Assembly (NCBI GenBank): GCA_035498035.1
Contig: DATKAN010000025.1
Location: forward strand, 145,190 to 209,189
Direction of reading: 5' to 3'
Source of the DNA: Nitrospiria bacterium
GTDB taxonomy: Bacteria; Nitrospirota; Nitrospiria; JACQBZ01
DNA length: 64,000 bases
This document shows positions 2-54,621 of this stretch, in pieces. A program made the position numbers and the translations under genes. The notes beneath the pieces were generated by a model. The model did not search any database, was not told the origin of the DNA, and saw only the letters and a list, made by a program, of their open reading frames with translations. Positions within the stretch are counted from its first letter, which is position 1; every line of letters begins with the position of its first letter.

Positions 2-1078
2 TCGATCAAGATTTCCGGCTGTCAAAACGCCTGTGCGCAGCATCAGCTCGCCTCGATCGGATTTCACGGCGTGGGCAAAAAAGTCGGCAGCCGCACTGCG
101 CCGTTCTACGAGATCCATCTCGGGGGCTCGAATCTACGATTCGGACCGTACGTCGTTAAGATCCCGGCCAAACGCGCTCCGGATGCCGTTCGGCATCTTC
201 TCAAACAGTACCGGGAGACCCGCCTCAACGGCGAATCGTTCGAGACCTTTACCGCACGACTGGGCAAGGAAAAACTCAAAGAGACCCTGATGCCGTTCAC
301 GTTTCTGCCTTCCTATGACGAGGACCGCAGTTTCTACGTTGACTGGGGAGAGGAGAAGGATTTCACAACGGAGGATCTTGGGCCCGGCGAATGCGCCGGA
401 GGGGCTTACGAGATGATGGAGGGCTTCCTGTTTGAAGCCGACCAGGAACTTCACCTGGCCGGGGTAATGACCGAAAAGGGGCAGACGGGCCATGCCGTAA
501 ATAAAGCCTACCGAGCCATCGTGGCCGCGGCCAAGGGGCTTTTGGTGCTGGAAGGGGTCGACTCCTCCATCGATGCCGACATTCTTTTTAAAGCCGAAAC
601 GCTTCTGGTCGGGAAAGAAATCCTTCCCCGGACCTTCGCCCGCCTGACCGATCAGGTCAAGGAGCTTGGACCAAAGTCGCCCACGGTCGAGTTTGCCCGA
701 GGAAAAATTGCCTTTGCCAAATCATTTGTCGAAGCCAGTCATGCGGCCTTTGACCAACACGGCCGTGCGCTTAAGCAAGGGAAAACCCACGCCCCCAAAG
801 CATCCGAGGCGGTGGAAAAATCTGGCGAGCAGGCGCCGGGGGAAACGGTATCGGTCGTCAAGCTGGATCTAAGCGGCGTGGCCTGTCCGATCAATTACGT
901 GAAAACCAAACTCAAGTTGGAGGAATTGGAAGTCGGCCAACGGCTCGAGGTGATTCTGGACGAAGGCGAGCCGATCCGAAACGTCCCGAAGAGTCTCCAA
1001 GGTGACGGACAGAAGATTCTGTCCCAGGAAAAATTGGACGATTACCATTACCGTCTTCTAATCGAAAAGGCGTTCTAA
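2..1078 (+). CDS. Siroheme-dependent sulfite/nitrite reductase hemoprotein, C-terminal part, with a fused C-terminal TusA-like (SirA/YedF) domain. The 5' end is truncated by the window edge.
   Basis: Frame 2 is open from base 2 and reads [21 protein letters not shown], the Cys-cluster signature of the siroheme/[4Fe-4S] site of NirA/Sir hemoproteins. The last ~70 aa ([43 protein letters not shown]) fit the TusA Cys-Pro fold pattern. ATP sulfurylase is adjacent. Confidence 0.7.
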
Positions 1079-1091
1079 CTCGGAGAAACAA

Positions 1092-2270
1092 ATGACAACG
1101 AATACGCCCCATCATGAAATTCCGGCCCATGGCGGCCGGTTGATCAGCCGCCTCGTCCAAGGTGCCGAACAGGAACGGCTGATGAACAAAGCGCTCGAGA
1201 TGAAAAAGATCCCGCTCACCCGGCGAAAACTTTGCGACCTGGAGATGCTCGCCGTAGGCGCCTACAGCCCGCTCGAGGGCTACATGGGACGGAAGGATTA
1301 TGAACGCGTGGTCACGGAGATGCACTTGTCCGGCGGCCTTCCCTGGAGCATCCCGATCACTTTCCGTGTCGACAGGAAGACGGCCGAGTCGATCCGGGAA
1401 GGTCAGGAAATCGCCCTGACGGATGAACGTCAAAATATCCTGGCGATCCTTCATCTGGAGGAAAAATTCGAATACGATAAAAAACTCGCCGCGAGGGCGG
1501 TCTACCGAACCGACAGCGCAGCGCATCCGGGTGTGGACATTCTCTACAAACGGGGAGATATTCTTCTGGGAGGCAAGGTCAGCGTGGTTCGGCTTCCAGA
1601 AAACCGCGAGTTTCTTTCCTACCGCCTTACGCCGGCCGAAACGCGGGCCATCTTCAAAGATCGCGGATGGAAGACCGTCGTCGGTTTTCAAACAAGAAAT
1701 CCGGTTCACCGGGCTCATGAATACATCCAGAAATGCGCGCTGGAGATTGTGGATGGACTCTTGCTTCATCCCCTGATCGGCGAGACAAAGAGCGACGACA
1801 TCCCCGCGGATGTCCGGATGCGATGCTACGAGGCCTTGTTAGAAAGGTACTACCCTAAAAACCGCGTCGTGCTCTCGGTGCTTCCGGCGCCGATGCGTTA
1901 TGCCGGCCCCCGCGAGGCCATCCATCACGCGATCGTCCGGAAGAACTACGGCTGCACCCATTTCATCGTCGGGCGAGATCATGCCGGCGTCGGAAGTTTT
2001 TACGGCTCGTTCGACGCCCACCATATCTTCAATGAATTTGCCCCCGGGGAACTGGGCATCACGCCGCTTTTCTTCGACAACACCTTTTACTGCAAGGCCT
2101 GCGGAAGCATGGCCTCGGTCAAAACCTGCCCGCATGACAAGAATGAACATGTAAGCCTTTCCGGCACAAAAGTTCGTGAAATGCTCCGGGCCGGCACCCT
2201 GCCGCCACCCGAGTTTTCCCGTCCGGAAGTGGCCAAGATCCTGATCGAGGCGATGAAAAATAGCGGATAA
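1092..2270 (+). CDS. sat: Sulfate adenylyltransferase (ATP sulfurylase)
   Basis: 392 aa. Carries the [11 protein letters not shown] and GRDHAGVG motifs of ATP sulfurylase and the PUA-like N-terminus. GGAGAAACAA spacer before the ATG. Confidence 0.9.
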
Positions 2271-2308: not shown

Positions 2309-2337
2309 TTGACACCCTCCCCCGTCTGGCATATAGT
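2309..2337 (+). promoter_or_regulatory. Candidate sigma70-type promoter for the apbC operon: TTGACA, 17 nt, TATAGT
   Basis: TTGACA at 2309-2314, a 17-nt spacer, then TATAGT at 2332-2337, about 22 nt upstream of the ATG at 2360. GGGAGG RBS at 2349-2354. Confidence 0.4.
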
Positions 2338-2359
2338 AGCTTTTTCTGGGAGGAATGTC

Positions 2360-3310
2360 ATGAAACAAGGCAAATCGGAAGGAAGGACCATCACCGAGGT
2401 GGTAAAAGACCTCGAGGCGCAGCAAAAGAAAAACAAGGTGGTCAATCCCATTGTTCAGCAGGTCATGGAGCAGGTCGCGGCCGTCCAGACAAGGATGGGC
2501 CTGATCAAGCACAAGATCGCGGTGATGAGCGGGAAAGGGGGCGTAGGCAAGAGCTCGGTGACGGTTAATCTCGCCCACAGTTTTGCCGCGCGGGGCTACA
2601 AAGTCGGCATCCTGGACGTGGACTTAAGCGGGCCTTGCATCCCGAAAATGATGGGCGTACGCGAGCGGGCGCTCAAGATTACGTCCGAAGGGGCTCAACC
2701 GGCGCTTGGAGTGAACGGGATCAAAGTTGCCTCGATGGAGCTGATGCTCCCCAGCGAGGGCAGCCCGGTGATGTGGAAAGGGCTTTGGGAAGATTCGGCC
2801 GTCTGGCGCGGTACGGTCGAGATGAGCGTCATACGCGAGTTCATCAGCGATGTCAATTGGGGTCCCCTGGATCTCCTATTGATTGATATGCCCCCGGCCT
2901 CCTCTGACAAGCCGCCGATCATCTCCCAGATGATTTCGGACCTGGATGGGGCCGTGATCGTGACGATTCCTTCTGAAATTTCACAATTTATCGTCAAAAA
3001 ATCGGTCGTGTTTTTGAACCGGGAACTTCATATCCCGATCATCGGACTGATCGAGAACATGAGCGGGGCGATCTGCCCGCATTGCGGAGAGTCGCTGGAA
3101 CTTTTCGAAGATGCGTCCCGGGGGGAAAGTCCTCTCCAGAAAATGGGCCTCCCTCTGTTGGGCCGGGTCCCTTTCGACCGGCGGATCGCCGGCTGTGCGG
3201 ACCATGGCCGGTCGTTCGTGGATGAGCATCCGCTCACACCAGCCGCGCAGGCCTTCCGGATCATTACCGATTCGCTGCAACAGCACATTGAATCAAGGAG
3301 ATCGTCATGA
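2360..3310 (+). CDS. apbC: Fe-S cluster carrier ATPase, Mrp/ApbC/NBP35 family
   Basis: Deviant Walker A KGGVGKSS, the ParA/MinD-like fold and a C-terminal CPHC motif. The internal Met at 2360 is preferred over the ORF-track start at 2309 because of the GGGAGG RBS and the promoter position. Confidence 0.85.
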   Translation: MKQGKSEGRTITEVVKDLEAQQKKNKVVNPIVQQVMEQVAAVQTRMGLIKHKIAVMSGKGGVGKSSVTVNLAHSFAARGYKVGILDVDLSGPCIPKMMGVRERALKITSEGAQPALGVNGIKVASMELMLPSEGSPVMWKGLWEDSAVWRGTVEMSVIREFISDVNWGPLDLLLIDMPPASSDKPPIISQMISDLDGAVIVTIPSEISQFIVKKSVVFLNRELHIPIIGLIENMSGAICPHCGESLELFEDASRGESPLQKMGLPLLGRVPFDRRIAGCADHGRSFVDEHPLTPAAQAFRIITDSLQQHIESRRSS

Positions 3311-3822
3311 AATTTTTGTGCATCAAATGCAACAACTTCATGGATTACGAATCCAAGGAACAGGTCGACACGCTCCGCCTTGGCATCACCTTTGCCTGTA
3401 CCCAATGCGGCTATAAAGTTGCGATGGTCACCAATCCGGGGGAGACCCAGTTGGTCAGCGGGCTGGGCGTCAAGATCGGCGGACGGACGGTTCCGGCCGA
3501 GCCGATGGAATTCACACGCGAGGCCATCAAGCCGGAGGGCCAACCCACGGCGACCCTGTCGGCCGACATGGGCAAATGCCCCTTCCCGGCGATGCTGGCC
3601 GGGTCGGGTTTCAAAGACACCGGGATCGGGGCCGGCCTGTCCGGTCAGGACTCCCAACCCTCGGTTCCTTGGACATCGAACGCCGAAAAGCGGCTTCAAA
3701 ACGTCCCGTCTTTCGTCCGGTCGCTCGCCCGGGCTGGAATCGAGCAGTACGCGAAAGAGAACGGGTTCGCCGAAGTGAACGATCAGGTCATGGATGAGTA
3801 CCGGGAAAAGGTGGGAATGTAA
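3307..3822 (+). CDS. Zinc-ribbon protein with a C-terminal PCP-reductase-like (BchB C-terminal-like) domain; function unknown
   Basis: N-terminal CxxC...CxxC (CIKCNN...CTQCGYK). C-terminal AEKRLQNVPSFVRSLARAGIEQYAKENGF resembles the Proto_Chlide_red (pfam08369-like) motif. Start overlaps the apbC stop (ATGA), so the two are translationally coupled. Confidence 0.5.
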   Translation: MKFLCIKCNNFMDYESKEQVDTLRLGITFACTQCGYKVAMVTNPGETQLVSGLGVKIGGRTVPAEPMEFTREAIKPEGQPTATLSADMGKCPFPAMLAGSGFKDTGIGAGLSGQDSQPSVPWTSNAEKRLQNVPSFVRSLARAGIEQYAKENGFAEVNDQVMDEYREKVGM

Positions 3823-5949: not shown

Positions 5950-6603
5950 TCAATAACCATTCAACGTCAGGTCCTTCAATCCCACGATCTGTTGAATCCG
6001 TTTTTGCACCTGTCTTTTTTTGCCCTGCCGCAGAAGCGTGAGGAGATCGGACGCGGCCAGCCGTTGAAGGATGCGTCGCCGACGAGCCATGGAAGGAACC
6101 CGCGATTGGACCTGTTTCCGGATGGAACCCAACAGGCAGATGAATTTTCCGTATTCCGCTCCAAACGACCCTTCCAGTTCCCGGCGGATCCGGCGGGCGA
6201 GCGATGGACTTTTTCCGCTCGTCGATACGGCGATGATTAAATCCCCCCGTGTGATCACGGAGGGCATGATGACATTGCATCGGGCGGGGTCGTCTGCAAT
6301 GTTGACGAGACGGGAATCCGCCTGCGCCCGACGGGCGATTTCGGCATTGGCCTTCCGATCGTCCGTCGTGGCCATGATTAAGAAGGCCTCTTTGAGGTCC
6401 ACGGGACGCCAGCGACGGGCGTGGCCACGGATCGCGCCCGCCTGAACCAGATAGGACAGTTTGGGAGTCAAGCCCGGACTGACCACAGTCACACGGGCGC
6501 CGCAGGCCAGCAAGGTGAGGACTTTGCGCTCGGCAATCCGGCCCCCGCCGATCACGACCGCAGACCGGCCCTGTAGATCAAGAAAGGCCGGGAAATACCT
6601 CAT
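5950..6603 (-). CDS. Precorrin-2 dehydrogenase / sirohydrochlorin ferrochelatase (siroheme synthase N-terminal domain type, SirC/Met8-like)
   Basis: N-terminal FLDLQGRSAVVIGGGRIAERKVLTLLACGARVTVVSP matches the NAD-binding Rossmann motif of CysG-N/Met8p. Consistent with the siroheme requirement of the sulfite reductase at the window start. Confidence 0.75.
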   Translation of the reverse strand: MRYFPAFLDLQGRSAVVIGGGRIAERKVLTLLACGARVTVVSPGLTPKLSYLVQAGAIRGHARRWRPVDLKEAFLIMATTDDRKANAEIARRAQADSRLVNIADDPARCNVIMPSVITRGDLIIAVSTSGKSPSLARRIRRELEGSFGAEYGKFICLLGSIRKQVQSRVPSMARRRRILQRLAASDLLTLLRQGKKRQVQKRIQQIVGLKDLTLNGY

Positions 6604-44922: not shown

Positions 44923-45336
44923 GTGGACTGCGCGGGGTTCCTCTTGAGCCAAACCAAGCCTCTGATCGCCGTTGTGGATGACGATGTATCCGTCTGTCGC
45001 GCGCTGGAGCGGCTGCTGCACTCGCTGGGGATGAACACACATACCTTCGCCTCCGGCGGCGAGTTCCTCGATTTCATTCATGCCATGCCGTCGTTTCATC
45101 CGGACTGCGTCCTCCTCGACCTGCATATGCCCGGGTTGAACGGCCTGGATGTGCAGGAACAACTGACCCGGGACCACAGTCCGCTTTCCGTCATTTTCAT
45201 CACCGCCTATGACGAGGCCGTCACCCGGGATCGGGCGCTGGAGGGAGGCGCGGTCGCCTTTTTGCGCAAACCGTTCAGCGATGAGACCTTGATTAAGGCA
45301 TTGAACGAAGCGATTCAGAGGAGATCGGGACAATGA
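44923..45336 (+). CDS. Stand-alone receiver (REC) domain protein, translationally coupled to the decarboxylase gene
   Basis: IAVVDDDVSVCRAL...CVLLDLHMPGLNG...FITAYDE...FLRKPF receiver pattern with no output domain. Stop overlaps the next start (ATGA). TTG at 44944 (MSQTKPLIAVVDDD) is an alternative start. Confidence 0.6.
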   Translation: MDCAGFLLSQTKPLIAVVDDDVSVCRALERLLHSLGMNTHTFASGGEFLDFIHAMPSFHPDCVLLDLHMPGLNGLDVQEQLTRDHSPLSVIFITAYDEAVTRDRALEGGAVAFLRKPFSDETLIKALNEAIQRRSGQ

Positions 45337-48149
45337 AAAGCAAAAACGAGACATCGGAGGCCATGAAACGAACGGGTCCGGCGGTGGCGGGCGAGGCCTC
45401 CGCCGATTCCCCGTCCATTGACCTGAGGGATTTCTTCACGGCTTCGGAAGCGCGCGTGGACCGGTGGCGCAGCCTTCACCGTCTCGCAAAAGAATTGGCG
45501 GAATCAACCGGGTCCAAGACCGAGCCATTAAAAACGGAGGCCGCCGACCTCCTCGCGGCGATGGAGCCGATCGAGGACCTTTGCGGTTTCCCCGGCCCCC
45601 GGCTCATGGAGCATCTGCACGACCGGATCCGAACCGGTGACTGGACCGGATTCCTGCGCCTCGTGCAGCGTATCAGTTTCGCCTTGCTTGCCAACAGCTA
45701 CCGGGACGATCCCGAGGCTTGGAAACTCGAAGACGAGGGCGAAGTCCACGCCCCGGACATTCTCCCGCCGTCCATCGGACGCGGTCAGAGCCGCCGCCCG
45801 TATTTTGAGATCCTCATGGTCTCGCCCGGCGAACGCTCCACCTGGCCGGAGCTTCGTGAGATGTTCCGGAGAATCCGACGGGAGCACGACGAATTCATCT
45901 ACGAGCCGGTGATCGTCGGCAGTCTCGAGGATGCGCTTCTGGCCGTTATTTTCAACTACAACCTCCAGGCGGTCGTGATCAGCGACGGCTTCGGGTTCGC
46001 CTCCCAGTACTCGGTGCCCGTCCTGCGGGAAATTCTTCAGCAGCAGGTCCCGATCGATGAGGCCGCACGCACCGGCGATCTTGGCGCGACCCTGTCCCGC
46101 CTAATCCGCCGTGTGCGACCCGAAATGGACATCTACCTTGTCACCGACCGCAACGTGGGCAAGTTGGCGGGGTCCGACGAGGCCGCCTCGATCCGACGGG
46201 TCTTTTACGGCGTCGAGGAGCCGATGGAGATCCATTTGAGCATCCTCGAAGGGATCAAGGAACGCTACACCACGCCGTACTTCGACAACCTCAAACGCTA
46301 TGCGCAACGCCCGATCGGCACGTTTCACGCCCTGCCGATCGCACGCGGCAAGTCGATCTTCAAGTCGAACTGGATTCGCGACATGGGTGAATTCTACGGC
46401 GCAAACCTCTTTCTTGCGGAATCCTCCGCCACCACCGGCGGGCTCGACAGTCTCCTCGAGCCCACGGGCAACATCAAACTCGCCCAGGATGCCGCGGCGC
46501 GCGCCCTCGGCGGCGACCGCAGCTTTTTTGTCACCAACGGCACCTCCACCTCCAACAAGATCGTCCACCAGGCGTTGGTACGACCCGGAGACATCGTACT
46601 GATCGATCGCGACTGTCACAAGTCCCACCACTACGGGACGGTGCTGGCCGGCGCGCAGCCCCTCTACATCGACGCCTATCCGCTCACGCAGTATTCGATG
46701 TACGGCAGCCTCGCGATCAAACCGATTAAGCAGGCACTGCTGCGGCTCAAGGCCGAAGGCAAGCTCGACCGGGCCAGAATGCTTGTGCTCACCAATTGCA
46801 CCTTCGACGGGCATGTCGCCAACGTGAAGCGCACGATGCTCGAATGCCTCGCCATCAAACCGGACTTGATCTTTCTCTGGGACGAGGCCTGGTTCGGCTT
46901 CGCCCGCTTCTCGCCGTTTTTGCGTCGGAGAACCGCGATGGGCGCCGCGGCCGATCTGCGCGCCATGATTCGGGACCCGGAGTACCGCAAACGGTATGAG
47001 GAGTTCAAGAAACAAGCGGGCGAGCTCGACCCCAAGGACCCGCGTCTTCTCGATATGTCCCTGTTGCCCGACCCGGACAAGGTCCGGCTTCGGATGTACG
47101 AGACCGACTCGGTGCATAAATCCATGTCCTGTCTGCGTCAGGGATCGATCATCGTGGTCGCCGATCAGGACTTCCACAAGGTCGAAGCGGCTTTCAAGGA
47201 GGCCTTCTTCACACACACATCGACCTCGCCCAACCTCCAGATCATCGCCTCCATCGACGTGGCGCGGCGGCAGATGGAATTGGAAGGCTACGAGCTCGTG
47301 GGGCGCGCCACGCAGCTCGCGATCGAGATGCGGCGCGAGATCAACAGCCATCCGCTCATCTCCAAATACTTCCGCGCCGCGACACCGGCCGATATGATCC
47401 CGGCCGAATACCGCCGCTCGGGCATGGCGGACTACGGGGCGCCGGGTTGGACCATGACGGACACGATCAAGGCGCTCGACGACGATGAATTTTTCCTGGA
47501 CCCGAGTCGCATTACCTTGCTGTGCGGAAACGCCGGCTACGACGGGACACAGTTCAAGGCCCTGTTGTCGAGTGATTACGACATCCAGATCAACAAGACC
47601 TCGCGAAACAGCGTGCTGGTGCAGATCAACATCAACAATAACCGAAGCGATCTGGCGCACCTCATCAAGGCCCTGGCCGAGATGGCGCGCACGATCGACA
47701 AGCGGCTGCAGGAGGGGGGCGAATCGGAGCGCGCGGCCTTCCAGGCGCGTGTCAAGTCCCTGGTGGAGGACGTGCCCGACATGCCGGACTTCAGTGGTTT
47801 CCATGACGCCTTCCGCGAAGACCCGAAGAGCGCCACAAAGGAAGGGCATATCCGGGACGCCTACTACATGGCCTACGACGCCGCGAACTGCGAGTACATC
47901 AAGCTCAACAGCCAGGAGATCGACGATCGGCTGAAGAACGGACCGCCCTTGGTCTCGGCCAAATTCGTGATCCCATACCCGCCCGGCTTCCCGATCATGG
48001 TGCCGGGCCAGGTGATCACGCAGGAGACGATCACGTTCATGCGGAAGCTGGACGTGAAGGAGATTCACGGTTTCAACGCCGTCAAGGGTCTCGAACTGCT
48101 TAAAGCCGATGCGCTGGCCAGACATAAGGCCAAGGCCGCCGAACTATAG
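45333..48149 (+). CDS. Orn/Lys/Arg decarboxylase family protein (fold-type I PLP, inducible-decarboxylase-like), long form with a ~150-aa N-terminal extension
   Basis: FVTNGTSTSNKIVHQALVRPGDIVLIDRDCHKSHHYG aligns with the LdcI/AdiA block FVVNGTSTANKIV...ILIDRNCHKS. PLP-Lys motif SVHKSM. A wing-like region precedes the PLP domain. 938 aa. Confidence 0.75.
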   Translation: MKSKNETSEAMKRTGPAVAGEASADSPSIDLRDFFTASEARVDRWRSLHRLAKELAESTGSKTEPLKTEAADLLAAMEPIEDLCGFPGPRLMEHLHDRIRTGDWTGFLRLVQRISFALLANSYRDDPEAWKLEDEGEVHAPDILPPSIGRGQSRRPYFEILMVSPGERSTWPELREMFRRIRREHDEFIYEPVIVGSLEDALLAVIFNYNLQAVVISDGFGFASQYSVPVLREILQQQVPIDEAARTGDLGATLSRLIRRVRPEMDIYLVTDRNVGKLAGSDEAASIRRVFYGVEEPMEIHLSILEGIKERYTTPYFDNLKRYAQRPIGTFHALPIARGKSIFKSNWIRDMGEFYGANLFLAESSATTGGLDSLLEPTGNIKLAQDAAARALGGDRSFFVTNGTSTSNKIVHQALVRPGDIVLIDRDCHKSHHYGTVLAGAQPLYIDAYPLTQYSMYGSLAIKPIKQALLRLKAEGKLDRARMLVLTNCTFDGHVANVKRTMLECLAIKPDLIFLWDEAWFGFARFSPFLRRRTAMGAAADLRAMIRDPEYRKRYEEFKKQAGELDPKDPRLLDMSLLPDPDKVRLRMYETDSVHKSMSCLRQGSIIVVADQDFHKVEAAFKEAFFTHTSTSPNLQIIASIDVARRQMELEGYELVGRATQLAIEMRREINSHPLISKYFRAATPADMIPAEYRRSGMADYGAPGWTMTDTIKALDDDEFFLDPSRITLLCGNAGYDGTQFKALLSSDYDIQINKTSRNSVLVQININNNRSDLAHLIKALAEMARTIDKRLQEGGESERAAFQARVKSLVEDVPDMPDFSGFHDAFREDPKSATKEGHIRDAYYMAYDAANCEYIKLNSQEIDDRLKNGPPLVSAKFVIPYPPGFPIMVPGQVITQETITFMRKLDVKEIHGFNAVKGLELLKADALARHKAKAAEL

Positions 48150-48218
48150 AGCGGCCAGAGCTGCAAAAATCACTAAGGCCGGCCTGGTATGCCGATGGCG
48201 GGTCGAGAAAGGAGCTTT

Positions 48219-49901
48219 ATGGAATGGCTGATCGAGACATTTAAACATTATCCGGAGCTGGCGATTTTTCTCACGCTGGCCCTGGGGTATTGGGTGGGCG
48301 GGCTCAAGTTCGGCACCTTTTCCCTGGGCGCGGTCACCGGGACGCTTCTGGTGGGCGTCGTCGTGGGGCAGATGCAGATCACGATCTCCCCACAAGTAAA
48401 ATCGGTTTTCTTTCTCATGTTTCTTTTCGCCGTTGGCTACGGCGTCGGCCCGCAGTTCGTCCGCGGCCTGAAGAGCGACGGCCTCCCTCAGGTGATCTTC
48501 GCCGTCCTCCAGTGCGTGGCCTCGCTGCTGACGGTCTTAATTGTCGCGAAGCTGTTCGGCTACAACGTCGGCCTGGCGGCCGGTCTCCTCTCCGGATCCC
48601 AGACCATTTCGGCGGTGCTCGGCGTGGCCACGGACGCGATCAACCGTCTTGGGATCTCAACGGAGGACAAGGAGAAGCTCATCAATGCCATGCCGGTTGC
48701 CTACGCCGTGACCTACATCTTCGGCACGGCCGGGTCGGCATGGGTCCTGGCCTCTATCGGGCCGAAGATCCTTGGAGTGGATCTTCCGGCCGAATGTAAA
48801 AAGCTGGAAGAGAAGATGGGTGCGGGCGGGGAAACCGAGCCCGGAGTCATATCTGCGGCCCGGCGCTTCGATGTGCGCGCCTACCGTGTGACCAACCCGA
48901 ATCTGGTGAACAGGACCGTTGCGGAGCTTGAGGCCCTTCCCAAGGAGGCCCGCGTTTTTATCGTCCGGGTCCGCCACGCAGGCGCGATCATCGAGGCCGA
49001 GCCCGCCACCGTGATTCATCAGGACGACGTGGTCGCCGTAACAACCCGACAGGAGATTCACGTCGAGCGTGGAACCGCCATCGGCCCGGAGGTGGACGAC
49101 AAAGCCCTGCTCGATTTTCCGGTGACATTGCTCGATGTGGTGATGACGAACAAATCGCTCGCCGGAAAGACCTTGGCGGAGTTGGCGGCCTCCGAGAACG
49201 CCCGCGGGGTGTTTTTGCGGAAGCTGATGCGAAGCGGCCTGGAGATGCCGTTAACCCCTGGAACCCAGGTCGATCGCGGCGACGTGCTGACTCTTGTCGG
49301 CGCCAAGCGTGATGTCGACCGTGTGGCCAAGGAGATTGGCTACGCCGACCGGCCGACCAACATGACGGACATGGTCTTCGTGGGAGCCGGGATCGTTCTG
49401 GGGGGCTTGGTGGGCGCCATGGCGATCAACATCGGTGGCGTCCCATTGAGTCTCACTACAAGCGGCGGCTCGCTCATCGCGGGCCTGATCTTCGGATGGC
49501 TCCGGTCCGTGTACCGGACCTTCGGCCGCGTTCCAGAACCCGCCCTCTGGATGATGAATTCGGTGGGGCTCAATACCTTCATTGCCGTGGTCGGGATCAG
49601 TTCCGGACCGGCCTTCGTGCTTGGACTCAAAAATGCCGGAGTGAGTCTATTCCTGGCGGGGATCATTACGACCACGGTCCCGCTGGTGATCGGGGTCCTG
49701 CTCGGCAAGTACGTGTTCAAGTTTCACCCGGCGATTACGCTGGGCGCCGCCGCAGGCGCACGAACTACGACCGCGGCTCTCGGCCTTATTCAAGACGCGG
49801 CGAAGAGCAAGACGCCGGCTCTCGGCTACACCGTGACCTACGCCGTGGGCAACATACTGCTCATCACCTGGGGGCTCGTGATTGTGTTGTTAATGACGTA
49901 A
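48219..49901 (+). CDS. Aspartate:alanine exchanger (AAE) family transporter (AspT/YidE/YbjL-like), copy 1
   Basis: Duplicated TM domains around two central TrkA_C/RCK_C-like cytoplasmic domains. N-terminal ELAIFLTLALGYWVGGLKFG is characteristic of the family. Start at the Met after AAAGGAG. Confidence 0.8.
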   Translation: MEWLIETFKHYPELAIFLTLALGYWVGGLKFGTFSLGAVTGTLLVGVVVGQMQITISPQVKSVFFLMFLFAVGYGVGPQFVRGLKSDGLPQVIFAVLQCVASLLTVLIVAKLFGYNVGLAAGLLSGSQTISAVLGVATDAINRLGISTEDKEKLINAMPVAYAVTYIFGTAGSAWVLASIGPKILGVDLPAECKKLEEKMGAGGETEPGVISAARRFDVRAYRVTNPNLVNRTVAELEALPKEARVFIVRVRHAGAIIEAEPATVIHQDDVVAVTTRQEIHVERGTAIGPEVDDKALLDFPVTLLDVVMTNKSLAGKTLAELAASENARGVFLRKLMRSGLEMPLTPGTQVDRGDVLTLVGAKRDVDRVAKEIGYADRPTNMTDMVFVGAGIVLGGLVGAMAINIGGVPLSLTTSGGSLIAGLIFGWLRSVYRTFGRVPEPALWMMNSVGLNTFIAVVGISSGPAFVLGLKNAGVSLFLAGIITTTVPLVIGVLLGKYVFKFHPAITLGAAAGARTTTAALGLIQDAAKSKTPALGYTVTYAVGNILLITWGLVIVLLMT

Positions 49902-49925
49902 TAACAAAGAGAGGAGAATCCTACG

Positions 49926-51575
49926 ATGGCCATCAAATCATCAAAGTCGACCACCTCACGCGCCGAACAACGTGAGCTGCTAAAGCTGAGTCCCTTTGAG
50001 CTCAAGGACAAGCTCATTACCTTGGCCGCCGAGAGCGAACGGGAGAGCGATTTACAGATGCTGAACGCCGGGCGCGGCAACCCGAACTGGATCTGCACCA
50101 CGCCGCGGGAGGCTTTCGGAACTCTGCTCCAGTTCGGCATCGAGGAATCGCGGCGCGGTATTAACATACCGGATGCCGGTCGCATGCCCCAAAAGAACGG
50201 CATCGCGGGACGCTTCACATCTTTTCTCGAATCCCATAAGGAGGCTCCCGGGGCCGAGCTCCTCCGCGCCTCCTTCGATTACGGGACCAAAACGCTGAAC
50301 TTCGACCCGGATTCATTCGCGCACGAACTCGCCGAGAGTATCATCGGCTGCATGTATCCCGTGCCGGACCGTATGCTGCGATGCACCGAGCGGATCGTGC
50401 ACGAATACCTGGTCCGGGAGCTGTGCGCCGGCAAGCCGCCCGCCGGCCGCTACGACCTGTTCGCCGTCGAGGGCGGGACGGCCGCGATGTGTTACATCTT
50501 CGATTCGCTGATGCTCAACCGCCTGCTGCACCGCGGCGACACCGTCGCGCTCGGGATCCCGACCTTCACGCCCTACATCGAGATCCCTCACTTCGACCGC
50601 TATGCCTTCAAGGTGGTGAACATCGACGCCGGCTCCGAACAACGTCCCGACGGCAGCCATTCCTGGCAATATACCGACAAGGAAATCGACAAGCTCGCGG
50701 ACAAGCGGATCAAGGCGTTCTTCCTGGTCAATCCGAGCAACCCGCCCTCCTACGCCATGCGCCAAAGCACCGTGAAGCGGCTCGTCAAAATCGTGAAGAG
50801 CAAACGGCCCGACCTGATCATCATCACCGACGACGTCTACGGCACCTTCGTGCCCGGCTTCCGGTCGTTGATGGCCGAATTGCCGCAGAACACCATCGGC
50901 GTCTATTCCTATTCAAAGCATTTCGGATGCACCGGCTGGCGGCTCGGGGTCGTGGCAATTCACCAGAACAATATCTTCGACAAGATGCTGGGGAAACTGT
51001 CCTCCAAGGATCGCGCCGCGCTCAACCGCCGTTACGGCAGCATCTCGCTCGCGCCGGAGAAGCTGAAGTTCATCGACCGGATGGTCGCCGACAGCCGGCA
51101 GGTCGCGCTCAACCACACCGCCGGCCTGTCGATGCCCCAGCAGATCCAGATGGCCCTGTTCTCCCTGTTCGCGATCCTCGACACGGCCAACAGCTACAAG
51201 ACGCTTTGCCAGCTCGTCGTGCGCCGGCGTTTCAAGGCGCTGTGGGACGGGCTGAACCTCCCGTCGCCCCCTGAGGAAGACCGGGCCTCCTATTACGCCG
51301 AACTCGACCTCATGGTCTGGGCCGAAAAGGAATACGGTCCCGAGTTCGTGAAATTTCTCCGGAAGAACTACGAATGCACGGACGTCCTGTTCCGTCTCGC
51401 GGAGCAGTCGGGCGTCGTGCTTCTGCACGGCGGCGGATTTGGCGGGCCGGAATGGTCGGTCCGCGTATCGCTCGCCAATCTGCCGGAGGAAACCTATCCG
51501 AAAATCGGCCGGTACCTCAGGCAGGCGGCCGAGGGCTACGTTAAGGAATGGAAGGCGTCGCAAAAAAACAAGTAG
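49926..51575 (+). CDS. asdA: Aspartate 4-decarboxylase (bifunctional aspartate aminotransferase / L-aspartate beta-decarboxylase)
   Basis: ~549 aa class-I aminotransferase fold with PLP-Lys in YSYSKHFGCTGWRLGV. Its length and N-terminal extension match AsdA rather than ordinary AspC. Adjacent to an AspT-family exchanger, as in known aspD-aspT systems. Confidence 0.75.
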   Translation: MAIKSSKSTTSRAEQRELLKLSPFELKDKLITLAAESERESDLQMLNAGRGNPNWICTTPREAFGTLLQFGIEESRRGINIPDAGRMPQKNGIAGRFTSFLESHKEAPGAELLRASFDYGTKTLNFDPDSFAHELAESIIGCMYPVPDRMLRCTERIVHEYLVRELCAGKPPAGRYDLFAVEGGTAAMCYIFDSLMLNRLLHRGDTVALGIPTFTPYIEIPHFDRYAFKVVNIDAGSEQRPDGSHSWQYTDKEIDKLADKRIKAFFLVNPSNPPSYAMRQSTVKRLVKIVKSKRPDLIIITDDVYGTFVPGFRSLMAELPQNTIGVYSYSKHFGCTGWRLGVVAIHQNNIFDKMLGKLSSKDRAALNRRYGSISLAPEKLKFIDRMVADSRQVALNHTAGLSMPQQIQMALFSLFAILDTANSYKTLCQLVVRRRFKALWDGLNLPSPPEEDRASYYAELDLMVWAEKEYGPEFVKFLRKNYECTDVLFRLAEQSGVVLLHGGGFGGPEWSVRVSLANLPEETYPKIGRYLRQAAEGYVKEWKASQKNK

Positions 51576-51647
51576 TGCGGGGAACCCACAGAGAAAATAT
51601 CCATCGACCGGCCGAAATGATCCGGCCAAACAAAAGGAGGAAAAACC

Positions 51648-52715
51648 GTGAGACAGCATCCAATAAAAATGATCCTGCCGATCCTGGTGTTCCTGCTGGC
51701 GCTCGCGCCCGCGGCCTACGCCAAGCCCAAGATCGTGCTGTTGGCGACTGGGGGCACCATTGCCGGCGTGCAACCGGGCCCGAACGATCCCGGCTATAAG
51801 GCCGGCGAGGTTTCGGTGGACCAGCTCATCAAGGCCGTGCCGCAGTTAAAAGATATGGCCGACATCAGCGGCGAGCAGATCGCCAGCATCGGCAGTCAGA
51901 CCATGACCAATGACGTCTGGCTGAAACTCGCGGACCGGGCCAATGCGGTGCTGAAGCAATCCGATGTGACCGGGGTGGTGATCACCCATGGGACCGATAC
52001 GTTGGAGGAGACCGCTTACTTCCTCAGTCTCGTGGTGAAGAGCGACAAGCCGGTGGTGCTGGTCGGATCGATGCGACCCTCCACGGCCATCGGAGCGGAC
52101 GGTCCGGCCAACCTGTTCGAGGCGGTGGCGCTGGCGATAAACCCCGAGGCCAGGGGGCGCGGGCCGTTGATCGTCCTCAATGACGAGATCCACTACGCGC
52201 GCGAGGCCGAGAAAACCAACAGCACCGAACTCAACACTTTTAAATCCCCAAACCGCGGCCGCGCGGGTGTGATGAACACGGGAATCGCGCACTTCTTTTT
52301 CCCGAACAGCGTGCGCCACACCACGAAAAGCCAGTTCTCGGTGGATGGCGTGAAGCCTGAGGATCTGCCCCGGGTCGAGATCGTCTACTCCTATGCCAAC
52401 TTCGGACGCGACACGATCGATTTCCTGGTCCAGAAAGGCGTCAAGGGGATCGTGCTGGCCGGCGTGGGTGACGGCAATACGACCGATACGGCGATGGCGG
52501 GTCTTGTCGACGCGGCGAAGAAGGGTGTGGCCGTGGTCCGTGCGACGCGCACCGGCAGCGGGATCGTCGCACGAAATATCGAGGTGAACGACGACAAGCT
52601 GGGTCTGATCGCATCGATGGAATTAAACCCGCAGAAGGCAAGGATCTTATTGATGTTGGGGTTGATGCAGACCAAGGACCCGAAGAAACTCCAGGAACTG
52701 TTCTACGCCTATTGA
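51648..52715 (+). CDS. ansB: L-asparaginase type II (periplasmic)
   Basis: Signal peptide, TGGTIAG threonine active-site motif, and a second conserved HGTDT block. Confidence 0.85.
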   Translation: MRQHPIKMILPILVFLLALAPAAYAKPKIVLLATGGTIAGVQPGPNDPGYKAGEVSVDQLIKAVPQLKDMADISGEQIASIGSQTMTNDVWLKLADRANAVLKQSDVTGVVITHGTDTLEETAYFLSLVVKSDKPVVLVGSMRPSTAIGADGPANLFEAVALAINPEARGRGPLIVLNDEIHYAREAEKTNSTELNTFKSPNRGRAGVMNTGIAHFFFPNSVRHTTKSQFSVDGVKPEDLPRVEIVYSYANFGRDTIDFLVQKGVKGIVLAGVGDGNTTDTAMAGLVDAAKKGVAVVRATRTGSGIVARNIEVNDDKLGLIASMELNPQKARILLMLGLMQTKDPKKLQELFYAY

Positions 52716-52929
52716 TAGGGGCTTGCGTCGCCCCCTCCATCCGCCTCAAGCGGACTGGAGCCTCCCCCTCTCGCTCGCCTTGCTCGCTGGGTGGATCATC
52801 ACGGGCGGCGCAGGCAAGAGGACACCGCTTTCGGGCGGGAGTAAATGAAGTTTTGCGCGAAGCGCGGCGCAATGAGTATCACGGGCTTGCCCGTGGGTAT
52901 CTATCAATCGATAAGGGAACGCGAACGTC

Positions 52930-54621
52930 ATGATCGAGTGGTTCGTCTCGGCCTTGCGCAGCAACCCGGAGCTGGCGCTCTTTCTGTCGATCGGCCTGGG
53001 GTTCTGGATCGGGTCGTGGAAGCTCGGCCAATTCAGCCTGGGCGGCGTCACCGGTTCACTGCTCGCCGCGCTGTTGGTCGGCCAATTGAATGTCGAGGTT
53101 CCGGGTCTCGTCAAGACCGTGCTGTTCATGCTGTTCCTGTTCGGGACCGGTTATTCGGTCGGGCCGCAGTTTTTTCGTTCTTTGAAGGGGGACGGCCTGC
53201 GTTCGCTGGCCTTCACGATCGTGCACTGCGGGGCGGGGCTCGCCGTGGCCTATTTCATGGCGCGACTCCTTGGGCTGGACCTCGGCCTTTCGGCCGGCCT
53301 GCTCTCGGGCGGTCTGACCCAATCGGCCGCTATCGGAACCGCGACCGAGGCGATTATGGCGCTCCCGCTTCCGGATGCCGAGCGGCAGATGCTCGTCAGT
53401 CACATCGCCGTGGCGGATGCGCTGTCCTATTTGTTCGGCGTGGTGGCGCCCATCGTGTTCCTGGGTTCCATCGCGCCGCGAATGATGGGCATCGATCTCA
53501 AGGCCGAGGCGGCAGCGTTCGAGTCGAAGCTCGGGATCAAACGTGTCGCCCCCAATGTCACCTCGGCCTACCAGCGCTTTGCCTTCCGCGCACACCGCGT
53601 CGAAAGCGCCGAGGTCATCGGGAAGCGCGCGACCGAGGTGGAGGTGATCCGGCCGGACGGACGGATGTTCGTCGAGCGGCTGCGTCGAGGGGACCGGATC
53701 ATTCCTGTCGGTCCGGACACACGCGTCGAGCGGGGCGACATCCTCGTCCTCTACGGACGCCGGGAGGTGGTCCTGGAGGTCGGGCCGCGCCTCGGCCCCG
53801 AGGTCGACGACCCGGAGCTGCTCGATTTCCCGATTGAGGTCGCCAGGGTCGTCGTGACAAACCCCGAAATCACGGGACGGAGCTTCAGCGAGCTGGCCAG
53901 CTGGCCGCCGGCCCGCGGGGTAGGCGTCCGATCGGTCACACGCGGCGGCCAGGAAATCCCGATCTCCCCTGAAACCGTCATGGATCTCGGAGACGTGATA
54001 GAGCTGGTCGGACCGCAGCCCACGGTGGAACGCGCCGCGCGGGAGATCGGACAGGTTGAAATCCCCACGGCCAGCACCAACCTCATGCTCCTCGGCATCG
54101 GGATTGTAATCGGCGCGTTCGTCGGGCTGCCCTATCTCATGCTGGGGTCCTTAAAACTGTCGCTGACGACCAGTGTCGGGGTGTTGCTGGCCGGTCTGTT
54201 CTTCGGCTGGTTCTACTCGGTGAAGCCGGCGCTCGGGAAGATTCCAGACGCCTCGGTCAACCTCATGACCCAGCTCGGGCTGGCCGGATTCGTCGCCGTG
54301 GTCGGCCTGCATGCGGGGCCGATCTTCATCGATGCGGTGCGCGACGCCGGCCCGCGGCTTCTGCTCGGCGGCGCGGTGGTCACGTCGGTTCCACTGCTCG
54401 TGGCCTTCGCGTTCGGGCGCTATTTTCTGCGGATGCATCCGGTGCTTTTGATCGGCGCCATGGCCGGCGGCCAGACCCTGACCCCGGCGCTCGTCGCGAT
54501 CCAGGAGAAGGCCGAAAGCCAGACGCCGGTCCTGGGTTATACCGTGCCGTATGCGCTGGCCAACATACTGCTCACCATGTGGGGCACCTTCATGGTGCTG
54601 TTGCGATCACAGTTTGGATAA
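52930..54621 (+). CDS. AAE family transporter (AspT/YidE/YbjL-like), copy 2
   Basis: Paralog of the gene at 48219, with the same architecture and N-terminal pattern (ELALFLSIGLGFWIGSWKLG). Confidence 0.8.
   Translation: MIEWFVSALRSNPELALFLSIGLGFWIGSWKLGQFSLGGVTGSLLAALLVGQLNVEVPGLVKTVLFMLFLFGTGYSVGPQFFRSLKGDGLRSLAFTIVHCGAGLAVAYFMARLLGLDLGLSAGLLSGGLTQSAAIGTATEAIMALPLPDAERQMLVSHIAVADALSYLFGVVAPIVFLGSIAPRMMGIDLKAEAAAFESKLGIKRVAPNVTSAYQRFAFRAHRVESAEVIGKRATEVEVIRPDGRMFVERLRRGDRIIPVGPDTRVERGDILVLYGRREVVLEVGPRLGPEVDDPELLDFPIEVARVVVTNPEITGRSFSELASWPPARGVGVRSVTRGGQEIPISPETVMDLGDVIELVGPQPTVERAAREIGQVEIPTASTNLMLLGIGIVIGAFVGLPYLMLGSLKLSLTTSVGVLLAGLFFGWFYSVKPALGKIPDASVNLMTQLGLAGFVAVVGLHAGPIFIDAVRDAGPRLLLGGAVVTSVPLLVAFAFGRYFLRMHPVLLIGAMAGGQTLTPALVAIQEKAESQTPVLGYTVPYALANILLTMWGTFMVLLRSQFG

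Follow-up and report, generated by a model that had tools for sequence, protein, structure and literature searches.

At the left edge of a 64,000-nucleotide (nt) stretch of DNA from a Nitrospiria bacterium (hereafter the window) lies the 3' end of a gene, sir::tusA, in which a siroheme sulfite reductase is joined in frame to a TusA-family sulfur-carrier domain. Textbooks present assimilatory sulfite reductase, which makes sulfide for cysteine, as a six-electron enzyme that stands alone and frees this sulfide. By sequence comparison, we classify the fusion as a putative assimilatory, ferredoxin-type siroheme sulfite reductase with a NirA/SirA-like core, its sulfite specificity being read from the gene context. 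The core is followed by an extension made up of a cysteine-bearing loop, a HEPN-like helical bundle, a flexible linker and the TusA domain. The extension has only two cysteines, one in the loop (C585, window amino acid (aa) 131) and one in the TusA domain (C749, window aa 295), and each is present in 65/65 divergent full-length representatives (50% identity or less, aligned with MAFFT; P0121 numbering). This architecture suggests that the reduced sulfur leaves the enzyme protein-bound and not as free sulfide. The part of the gene that lies in the window is organized as follows (window coordinates in nt, aa of the window fragment):

2..1078, plus strand: 3' end of sir::HEPN-like::tusA, 1077 nt in one open frame (358 codons and the stop codon TAA)
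2..286, plus strand: end of the siroheme sulfite reductase core (last NIR_SIR), from Pfam and NCBIfam matches
motif at nt 14-43, plus strand: second [4Fe-4S] cysteine pair, Cys aa 7 and 11
287..394, plus strand: junction segment with a Y-x-D-W...F...G-x-G-E-C loop, Cys aa 131 at nt 392-394
395..784, plus strand: HEPN-like four-helix bundle of ~130 aa, from Foldseek, a PDB profile search and AlphaFold helices
785..859, plus strand: flexible low-complexity linker rich in A, E, K, P, S and T, of variable length and with a low predicted local distance difference test score (pLDDT)
860..1075, plus strand: TusA/SirA-family domain with Cys-Pro-x-Asn, Cys aa 295 at nt 884-886, from PF01206

The frame crosses the left window edge, with the first 449 of 807 codons outside the window. 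Inside the window it is uninterrupted, and its C-terminus is identical to the products of two metagenome loci, L083:1569-3992 and L086:444-2867, both of which encode the complete 807-aa protein in one frame. These contigs differ from the window by 5 mismatches over a 12,270-nt overlap (L083) and by 1 mismatch over 5,486 nt (L086). Such near-identity indicates that they stem from the same population, recovered in other assemblies. The identical Sat protein (see below) is found on twelve metagenome contigs. We derived the anatomy of the protein from a homologue alignment (A1) and two AlphaFold models, the full-length one having a pLDDT of 85.9 and a predicted template modeling score (pTM) of 0.72. 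The reductase core extends to about residue 544 of 807, and the other 263 aa form the C-terminal extension.

An earlier reading of this DNA, made from the letters and their open reading frames (ORFs) and referred to below as the sequence-only reading, had proposed that the hemoprotein ends in a TusA-like domain of ~75 aa with a TusA-type Cys-Pro motif (aa 292-303, nt 875-910). The in-frame fusion is confirmed by the whole-profile match of PF01206 to window aa 287-356 (profile positions 2-70 of 70, E 2.2e-18, 66.3 bits against a gathering threshold of 28.6). A sequence-profile search also matched it to TM0983 (1jdq, E 5e-11), YedF and YeeD. Foldseek recovered the two-layer alpha/beta sandwich fold, matching E. 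coli TusA (3lvj_C, template modeling (TM) score 0.82), DSY4693 (3hz7, 0.85-0.86) and 1dcj (0.78-0.80), and the active-site Cys-Pro sits at the start of TusA helix 1. The domain shares the PF01206 match, the alpha/beta fold (TM ~0.78-0.86) and the Cys-Pro dipeptide with known TusA/SirA carriers such as E. coli TusA, YedF, YeeD/TsuB and TM0983. However, it is tethered to an enzyme while those proteins are free-standing, and its motif reads C-P-x-N-[YF]-V-K-x-K, where the position of the second Pro of CPxP is taken by Asn in 65/65 representatives. The Cys-Pro part of the proposed motif thus stands, but the motif is not the canonical CPxP. The domain also scores below the cut-offs of the curated equivalogs for TusA (PRK00299) and YedF (PRK11018/TIGR03527), with 16.5 vs 78, 38.1 vs 79 and 20.8 vs 110, and on these comparisons we assign it to a putative subfamily of its own.

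The ~75-aa estimate captured only this last part of the extension. The sequence-only reading missed the HEPN-like bundle in the ~190-aa region before TusA, the second invariant cysteine in the GEC loop and the commonness of the fusion. Its statement that the architecture is not that of textbook CysI/Sir holds, the difference now comprising the Cys-loop, the bundle and the linker along with TusA. Residues 580-587 of the GEC loop have pLDDT values below 50, which fits a mobile loop. The linker, with a length of 11-45 aa (median 23), likewise has pLDDT values below 50 and falls in gap-rich columns of A1.

The bundle between loop and linker (model pLDDT ~76-95) shows the four-helix up-and-down HEPN fold in Foldseek comparisons of the model, with matches to 2hsb, 1wol and 2q00 (TM 0.69 each), 1ufb (0.68), the sacsin HEPN domain 3o10 (0.62) and also 1o3u. 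At the sequence level, the Pfam HEPN match to the window protein is sub-threshold (E 0.0093, 16.6 bits vs a cut-off of 22), while PF05168 is precomputed for many homologues of the fusion and the A1 profile finds the HEPN protein 9xbc among PDB sequences (E 6e-4). A nuclease function was considered and rejected: the Rx4-6H RNase motif of HEPN proteins was not found in the bundle, which has no conserved Arg or His, or other conserved polar residue, in the 65 representatives. Only L634, L635, G639 and F652 are conserved at 85% or above. With no conserved Arg or His, the bundle is probably a scaffold and not a nuclease.

For the core, the window holds only the end of the last NIR_SIR domain. Window aa 2-96 match part of the Pfam domain (E 4.9e-5) and positions 486-586 of 595 of the NCBIfam NirA family model (E 5.8e-13). 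On the 807-aa protein, the Pfam check suggested by the sequence-only reading returned two stretches each of PF01077 NIR_SIR (E 1.1e-54) and PF03460 NIR_SIR_ferr (E 5.2e-43) in addition to TusA. The [4Fe-4S] ligand motifs ACPGTDTC and GCQNAC (CX5C...CX3C) are present. By sequence, the closest matches are plant ferredoxin-nitrite reductases (E 1e-53) and M. tuberculosis NirA (E 3e-50). By fold, Foldseek ranks 1zj8 best (E 9e-32, TM 0.78 on the target), followed by tobacco nitrite reductase (E 2e-29), maize sulfite reductase (E 2e-25) and the E. coli sulfite reductase hemoprotein SiRHP (E 9e-23). The protein of structure 1zj8, M. tuberculosis NirA, is the sulfite reductase SirA (PMC3141025). The fusion shares with it the monomeric core of two NIR_SIR_ferr/NIR_SIR repeats, the four cluster cysteines and a sulfate-assimilation gene set, but identity is only ~27%, the NirA cut-off is missed and 1zj8 is without the 263-aa extension. 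In fact, all curated equivalogs (NirA family, Sir, CysI, ferredoxin-nitrite reductase) are missed, the best being NF007126 with 287.8 bits vs 523, which indicates that the core is a distinct subfamily.

Nitrospirota fusions have an invariant Tyr60 and an invariant Cys in the segment REACADTVRN (residue 135 of P0121; residue 130 of the L083 protein, upstream of the window). These two may correspond to the Tyr-Cys pair that is crosslinked in M. tuberculosis SirA. The loop around Cys135 is modeled by AlphaFold with low confidence. Among the divergent fusions, residue 135 is Cys in 13/65 and Gly, as in plant nitrite reductase, in 49/65. A Tyr-Cys crosslink was therefore rejected as a defining trait of the family.

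How widespread Sir-TusA fusions are, which the sequence-only reading had proposed to survey, became clear from a profile search with the extension among 1.84 billion cluster representatives. At E <=1e-30, 160 clusters (50% identity) matched, and 64 of the best 150 cluster representatives were full length (735-900 aa) and had the matching region at their C-terminal end. Intact fusions are present in hundreds of Nitrospirota genomes. Named carriers beyond the Nitrospirota are a "Deltaproteobacteria" MAG (metagenome-assembled genome) and many Bacteroidales (Prevotella, Bacteroidaceae, Paludibacteraceae). The extension module was seen only joined to Sir; the short matches examined either begin within the C-terminal part of Sir or come after a frame break. 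A stand-alone HEPN-TusA protein, or a free TusA of this subfamily, was therefore rejected, as the short matches are N-truncated fragments or frameshifts. In a second survey, one genome per GTDB species was scanned with two peptide patterns from the extension, yielding at least 600 stretches, of which at least 553 were confirmed, with up to two stretches per gene. All counts of operons and intact genes given below refer to the best 80 loci of the confirmed stretches. These 80 loci are all labeled Nitrospirota but one, labeled Nitrospinota, and the fusion appears to be the standard form of sulfite reductase in Nitrospira. The one labeled Nitrospinota (L055, JACZVJ010000033.1) has a Nitrospira-type operon and 50% identity, which could reflect mis-binning, mislabeling or lateral transfer.

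Besides the two extension cysteines, the cluster ligands C417, C423, C461 and C465 are each present in 65/65 representatives, as are D568, E584, P750 and N752. Compared with the window-type protein, the TusA domain has a median identity of 52%, the core of 32% and the HEPN-like bundle of 19%. Since conservation of the extension cysteines equals that of the Fe-S ligands, and that of TusA exceeds that of the core, the extension presumably takes part in the reaction or in the hand-off of its product.

The sequence-only reading had itself raised the objection that a frameshift in the assembly could make two separate ORFs appear as one. It is true that the gene is in pieces in some long contigs (L001:3209-5710, L002:6965-9401, L095:3758-6228), with three frame changes that finally restore the original frame in L001, and that many database entries are N-truncated fragments. 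However, the breaks in these long-read contigs fall at varying sites, and neighboring genes are damaged as well (cysN in L002; a merged GT3-CysD in L095). An intact frame is present in the window, in L083 and L086 and in ~70 of the 80 genome loci (805-850 aa), complete chromosomes included, and the 64 full-length cluster representatives point the same way. We therefore rejected a frameshift, misassembly or read-through of two genes as the origin of the fusion, the probability of which is practically negligible: independent assemblies are intact, and the broken copies lie in error-prone contigs. Gene callers name the pieces of split copies 'HEPN domain-containing protein' or 'TusA family protein'.

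The gene context of the fusion is assimilatory. In the window, sir::tusA is followed by these genes:

1092..2270, plus strand: sat, ATP sulfurylase, 13 nt past sir behind a GGAGA site; NF003166, 578.9 bits vs 387
2309..3310, plus strand: Mrp/ApbC/NUBPL-type Fe-S carrier ATPase in the same operon; PF10609, E 1.8e-77
3307..3822, plus strand: small zinc-ribbon and PCP_red protein whose start overlaps the mrp end; PF08369, E 4e-13
5950..6603, minus strand: CysG N-terminal/SirC-type precorrin-2 dehydrogenase / sirohydrochlorin ferrochelatase; TIGR01470, E 4.8e-51

The positions of sat directly downstream and of an ApbC-type carrier next to it are as first described. The gene at 5950..6603, which had been called SirC-like, does encode a siroheme enzyme, but one of the bifunctional CysG N-terminal type; it also matches PF13241, PF14824 and PF10414 and is predicted to supply siroheme. 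A scan of 20 larger ORFs in the rest of the window found no other sulfur genes but only housekeeping functions (SMC, peptidases, GltX, ATP synthase a subunit, sugar metabolism, sensor kinases, transporters), and there are no ThiS, ThiF, JAB or MetY homologues in the 64 kb. At 45333-54621, the window holds a 938-aa Orn/Lys/Arg decarboxylase-family protein, two Asp-Al_Ex/TrkA_C permeases (48189-49901 and 52930-54621) and an aminotransferase (49926-51575); this cluster may be an amino-acid decarboxylation/exchange module unrelated to sir::tusA.

Loci of the window clade (L003-L008, L083-L086) share the order Rrf2 (CymR-like), TauE, AprA, AprB-like, Sir::TusA, Sat, Mrp, PCP_red, with the TauE-family permease found upstream in L003-L005, L007 and L008. 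AprA (572-587 aa) passes the NF005331 cut-off (779.5 bits vs 557), and the AprB-like 2x[4Fe-4S] protein (126-127 aa) scores below that for aprB. This dissimilatory-type adenosine 5'-phosphosulfate (APS) reductase pair replaces CysH in the window lineage, its genes lying upstream of the left window edge (L083:1-1529; L003:2157-4329), and the order Rrf2-AprA-AprB-Sir::TusA-Sat recurs in the divergent lineage of L092 (L092:5495-7675). A dissimilatory-type Apr enzyme that serves assimilation has its only known precedent in Methanothermococcus (PMC10322725). The Nitrospira-type operon consists of Rrf2, Sir::TusA, CysH, a Glycos_transf_3 protein, CysD and CysNC, at times followed by Mrp and PCP_red. 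CysH was found in 72 of the 80 genome loci, the Glycos_transf_3 protein in 70 and Rrf2 in 69. Bacteroidales fusions have siroheme synthesis genes downstream (L089, L093, L094), and three divergent fusions are solitary genes. The adjoining genes (sat, AprAB or CysH/CysDN, siroheme synthesis) support sulfite, and not nitrite, as the putative substrate.

An mrp gene after sat is also present in L003, L004 and L083-L086, and the zinc-ribbon/PCP_red gene follows mrp in L001, L002, L003 and L083-L086. The Mrp and PCP_red pair was also observed behind cys genes in the Nitrospira loci L001, L002 and L028. In the window lineage the two genes close the operon. The small protein has its zinc ribbon at the N-terminus and its PCP_red domain, which is otherwise known as the C-terminus of the protochlorophyllide reductase BchB, at the C-terminus. 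We considered Mrp and PCP_red as universal partners of the fusion and rejected this, as an Mrp ORF occurs in only 13/80 genome loci (flank length limits this test). The Glycos_trans_3N/Glycos_transf_3 gene between cysH and cysD (L001:6492-7550) encodes a protein with the anthranilate phosphoribosyltransferase / nucleoside phosphorylase fold; one idea is that it salvages a nucleotide by-product.

A different neighborhood was found in L089 (1688-3111), a locus of the Bacteroidales type. Here, the fusion comes directly after genes for a ThiS-like protein, a ThiF of 270 aa that has no rhodanese domain and a JAB peptidase, and a MetY-type enzyme adjoins on the opposite strand. The ThiS-like protein ends in GGGAHL, an extension past the Gly-Gly. 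This set resembles the HcyS/HcyF/HcyD/MetY system of Wolinella succinogenes, in which Krishnamoorthy and Begley reportedly described, in 2011, a protein-thiocarboxylate pathway that includes Sir. According to Iyer, Burroughs & Aravind (2006, PMC1779556), the ThiS/JAB/E1 operons for sulfur assimilation "always contain a SirA". The authors predict that SirA replaces the rhodanese missing from E1, and they describe a ThiS fused to the Sir C-terminus in actinobacteria. This last fusion indicates that C-terminal carrier fusions to Sir recur. L089 reproduces their ThiS/JAB/E1, SirA and Sir neighborhood (type 4e), with SirA being the C-terminal domain of Sir, and in both cases SirA/TusA is functionally linked with assimilatory sulfite reductase. 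SirA is a neighborhood component in their account, however, and the Sir-HEPN-TusA fusion and the second cysteine were not found in the text searched. In the literature, SirA and Sir operons have been functionally linked since 2006. What is new is a common, uncharacterized architecture of a textbook enzyme, with a second invariant cysteine and a HEPN-like scaffold. Full-text literature searches found no description of the fusion and no experiment on it, and its database names are automatic ('sulfurtransferase TusA family protein' and 'HEPN domain-containing protein' at NCBI, 'sulfite reductase (ferredoxin)' in IMG).

The sequence-only reading had suggested that the fusion would place a sulfur acceptor or donor at the enzyme, which is an inference. 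From the conserved sequence features, we tentatively favor a relay in which two cysteines and a swinging arm would take the reduced sulfur off the siroheme site as protein-bound sulfane sulfur. Sulfite from APS reductase would be reduced at the siroheme-[4Fe-4S] site, and the reduced sulfur would not be let go as free sulfide but be caught by the two extension cysteines. These would alternate between a disulfide and a loop thiol plus TusA persulfide, the Cys-Cys disulfide and nascent HS- giving the TusA persulfide and the loop thiol. If the direct product is zero-valent sulfur, TusA could take up S0 directly. The TusA domain would then swing on its linker and give up the sulfane sulfur to an acceptor downstream, which may be a cysteine or homocysteine synthase or, where an E1 without rhodanese is present, an adenylated ThiS/CysO-like carrier. 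In the ThiS-type case, the persulfide would attack the adenylated carrier, and the loop Cys would resolve the acyl-disulfide and restore the disulfide, which would make the cycle redox-neutral overall. Parallel chemistry is that of rhodanese and the second cysteine of MOCS3/Uba4 and ThiI. The linker, variable and low in complexity as in swinging-arm carriers, is in favor of such a relay, as are the invariance of the only two cysteines of the extension, the high conservation of TusA and the fact that the module was seen only on Sir. The L089 neighborhood with ThiS-like, ThiF, JAB and MetY proteins favors a hand-off of the product. Cao et al. (2026, PMC13188885) reported S0 as the species directly set free by assimilatory sulfite reductases that are not fused, and a preference of cysteine synthases for persulfide. 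If this is right, a built-in S0 acceptor would be a natural elaboration of the enzyme.

Several points weigh against the relay. Canonical Sir works without a thiol partner. Capture of S2- as a persulfide would need an oxidized cysteine pair, the regeneration of which is hypothetical. Since Asn replaces the second Pro of CPxP, the domain may not share the chemistry of TusA. A link to ThiS/ThiF/JAB was found in only 1/95 loci, namely L089, with none near the fusion in the 64-kb window, in L001-L088 or in L090-L094. Finally, the claim of an S0 product comes from one recent study on unfused enzymes (PMC13188885).

A more far-reaching version of the relay, which we regard as rather doubtful, would make the fusion an assimilatory counterpart of DsrAB-DsrC that never frees sulfide, holds a persulfide or trisulfide on its own two invariant cysteines and uses the TusA arm to feed cysteine/homocysteine synthesis or carrier thiocarboxylation. 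In DsrAB-DsrC, a siroheme reductase works with a protein element that has two cysteines on a flexible arm, and the reduced sulfur is carried off protein-bound. The analogy is functional only: the extension has no homology to DsrC, the core is remote from DsrA/B (E 1e-5 to 1e-7, TM ~0.45-0.5), and the context of the fusion is assimilatory, without DsrMKJOP. If true, this version would be independent, genome-encoded support for the recent claim that assimilatory sulfite reduction has zero-valent sulfur, not H2S, as its true product.

The TusA domain could also act on the substrate side. Its Cys would attack thiosulfate, persulfide or polysulfide, sulfite would be freed at the reductase and the sulfane sulfur kept, with the loop Cys resolving, so that the fusion would be a device for thiosulfate assimilation. 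Both profile and fold comparisons do match the TusA part to YeeD, a component of the YeeE-YeeD complex for thiosulfate uptake (8k1r/8j4c), and YeeD, a TusA relative, breaks down thiosulfate via a conserved cysteine (PMC11073785). The operon of the window clade also includes a TauE/SafE-family anion permease. However, the likeness to YeeD is no better than that to TusA, TM0983 or YedF, and a YeeE/TsuA-like transporter was not seen in any neighborhood examined. The operons instead hold complete sulfate activation and reduction (Sat/AprAB or CysDN/CysH), pointing to sulfate as the substrate, and a thiosulfate device thus seems quite unlikely. The permease of the window clade, which belongs to the 'sulfite exporter' family TauE, might equally be cited for a reverse, oxidative direction similar to reverse Dsr (rDsr), as might the dissimilatory-type AprA/AprB and Sat that flank the fusion in this clade and in L092. 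In this case, TusA would deliver sulfane sulfur, the siroheme enzyme would oxidize it to sulfite, and AprAB and Sat would make sulfate and ATP; TusA is indeed known to feed rDsr in sulfur oxidizers. We consider this very improbable. The core is nearest to assimilatory enzymes, the strictly assimilatory CysH/CysD/CysNC adjoin in 72/80 loci, Bacteroidales fusions have siroheme genes, the regulator is CymR-like, and no DsrC, DsrEFH, DsrL or DsrMK genes lie nearby. The use of an Apr-type enzyme in assimilation, moreover, has the precedent mentioned above (PMC10322725).

It is also conceivable, though in our view unlikely, that the extension is regulatory or structural, with the cysteines forming a redox- or persulfide-sensitive switch and the TusA/HEPN module gating the active site or docking ferredoxin or cysteine synthase. 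Two invariant cysteines on mobile elements and a HEPN-like scaffold without a catalytic motif would suit such a role, and feedback by the sulfide or persulfide product would be physiologically sensible. The operon is controlled by an Rrf2/CymR-type regulator, which indicates that sulfur status is sensed in this system. On the other hand, TusA is more conserved than the core and has a conserved surface over the whole domain, which is more typical of a specific chemical partner. To our knowledge, the TusA family members characterized so far are carriers, not sensors. The fusion is kept both in strict anaerobes (Bacteroidales) and in aerobes (Nitrospira), which argues against an oxygen-specific switch.

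The carriers of the fusion are ecologically prominent. In soils, groundwater and wastewater plants, the main nitrite oxidizers and comammox bacteria belong to Nitrospira, and Prevotella and other Bacteroidales with the fusion are found in gut and rumen. The name 'sulfurtransferase TusA family protein', which PGAP gives to an intact reductase of ~800 aa, and the name 'HEPN domain-containing protein' can hide sulfate assimilation in metabolic reconstructions. The fusion offers a test system for the question raised in 2026 of whether assimilatory sulfite reduction yields S0 or persulfide rather than H2S, and of how aerobic respiratory enzymes are protected from toxic sulfide. To a sulfur specialist, the fusion will not be startling, but it bears directly on how reduced sulfur exits sulfite reductase.

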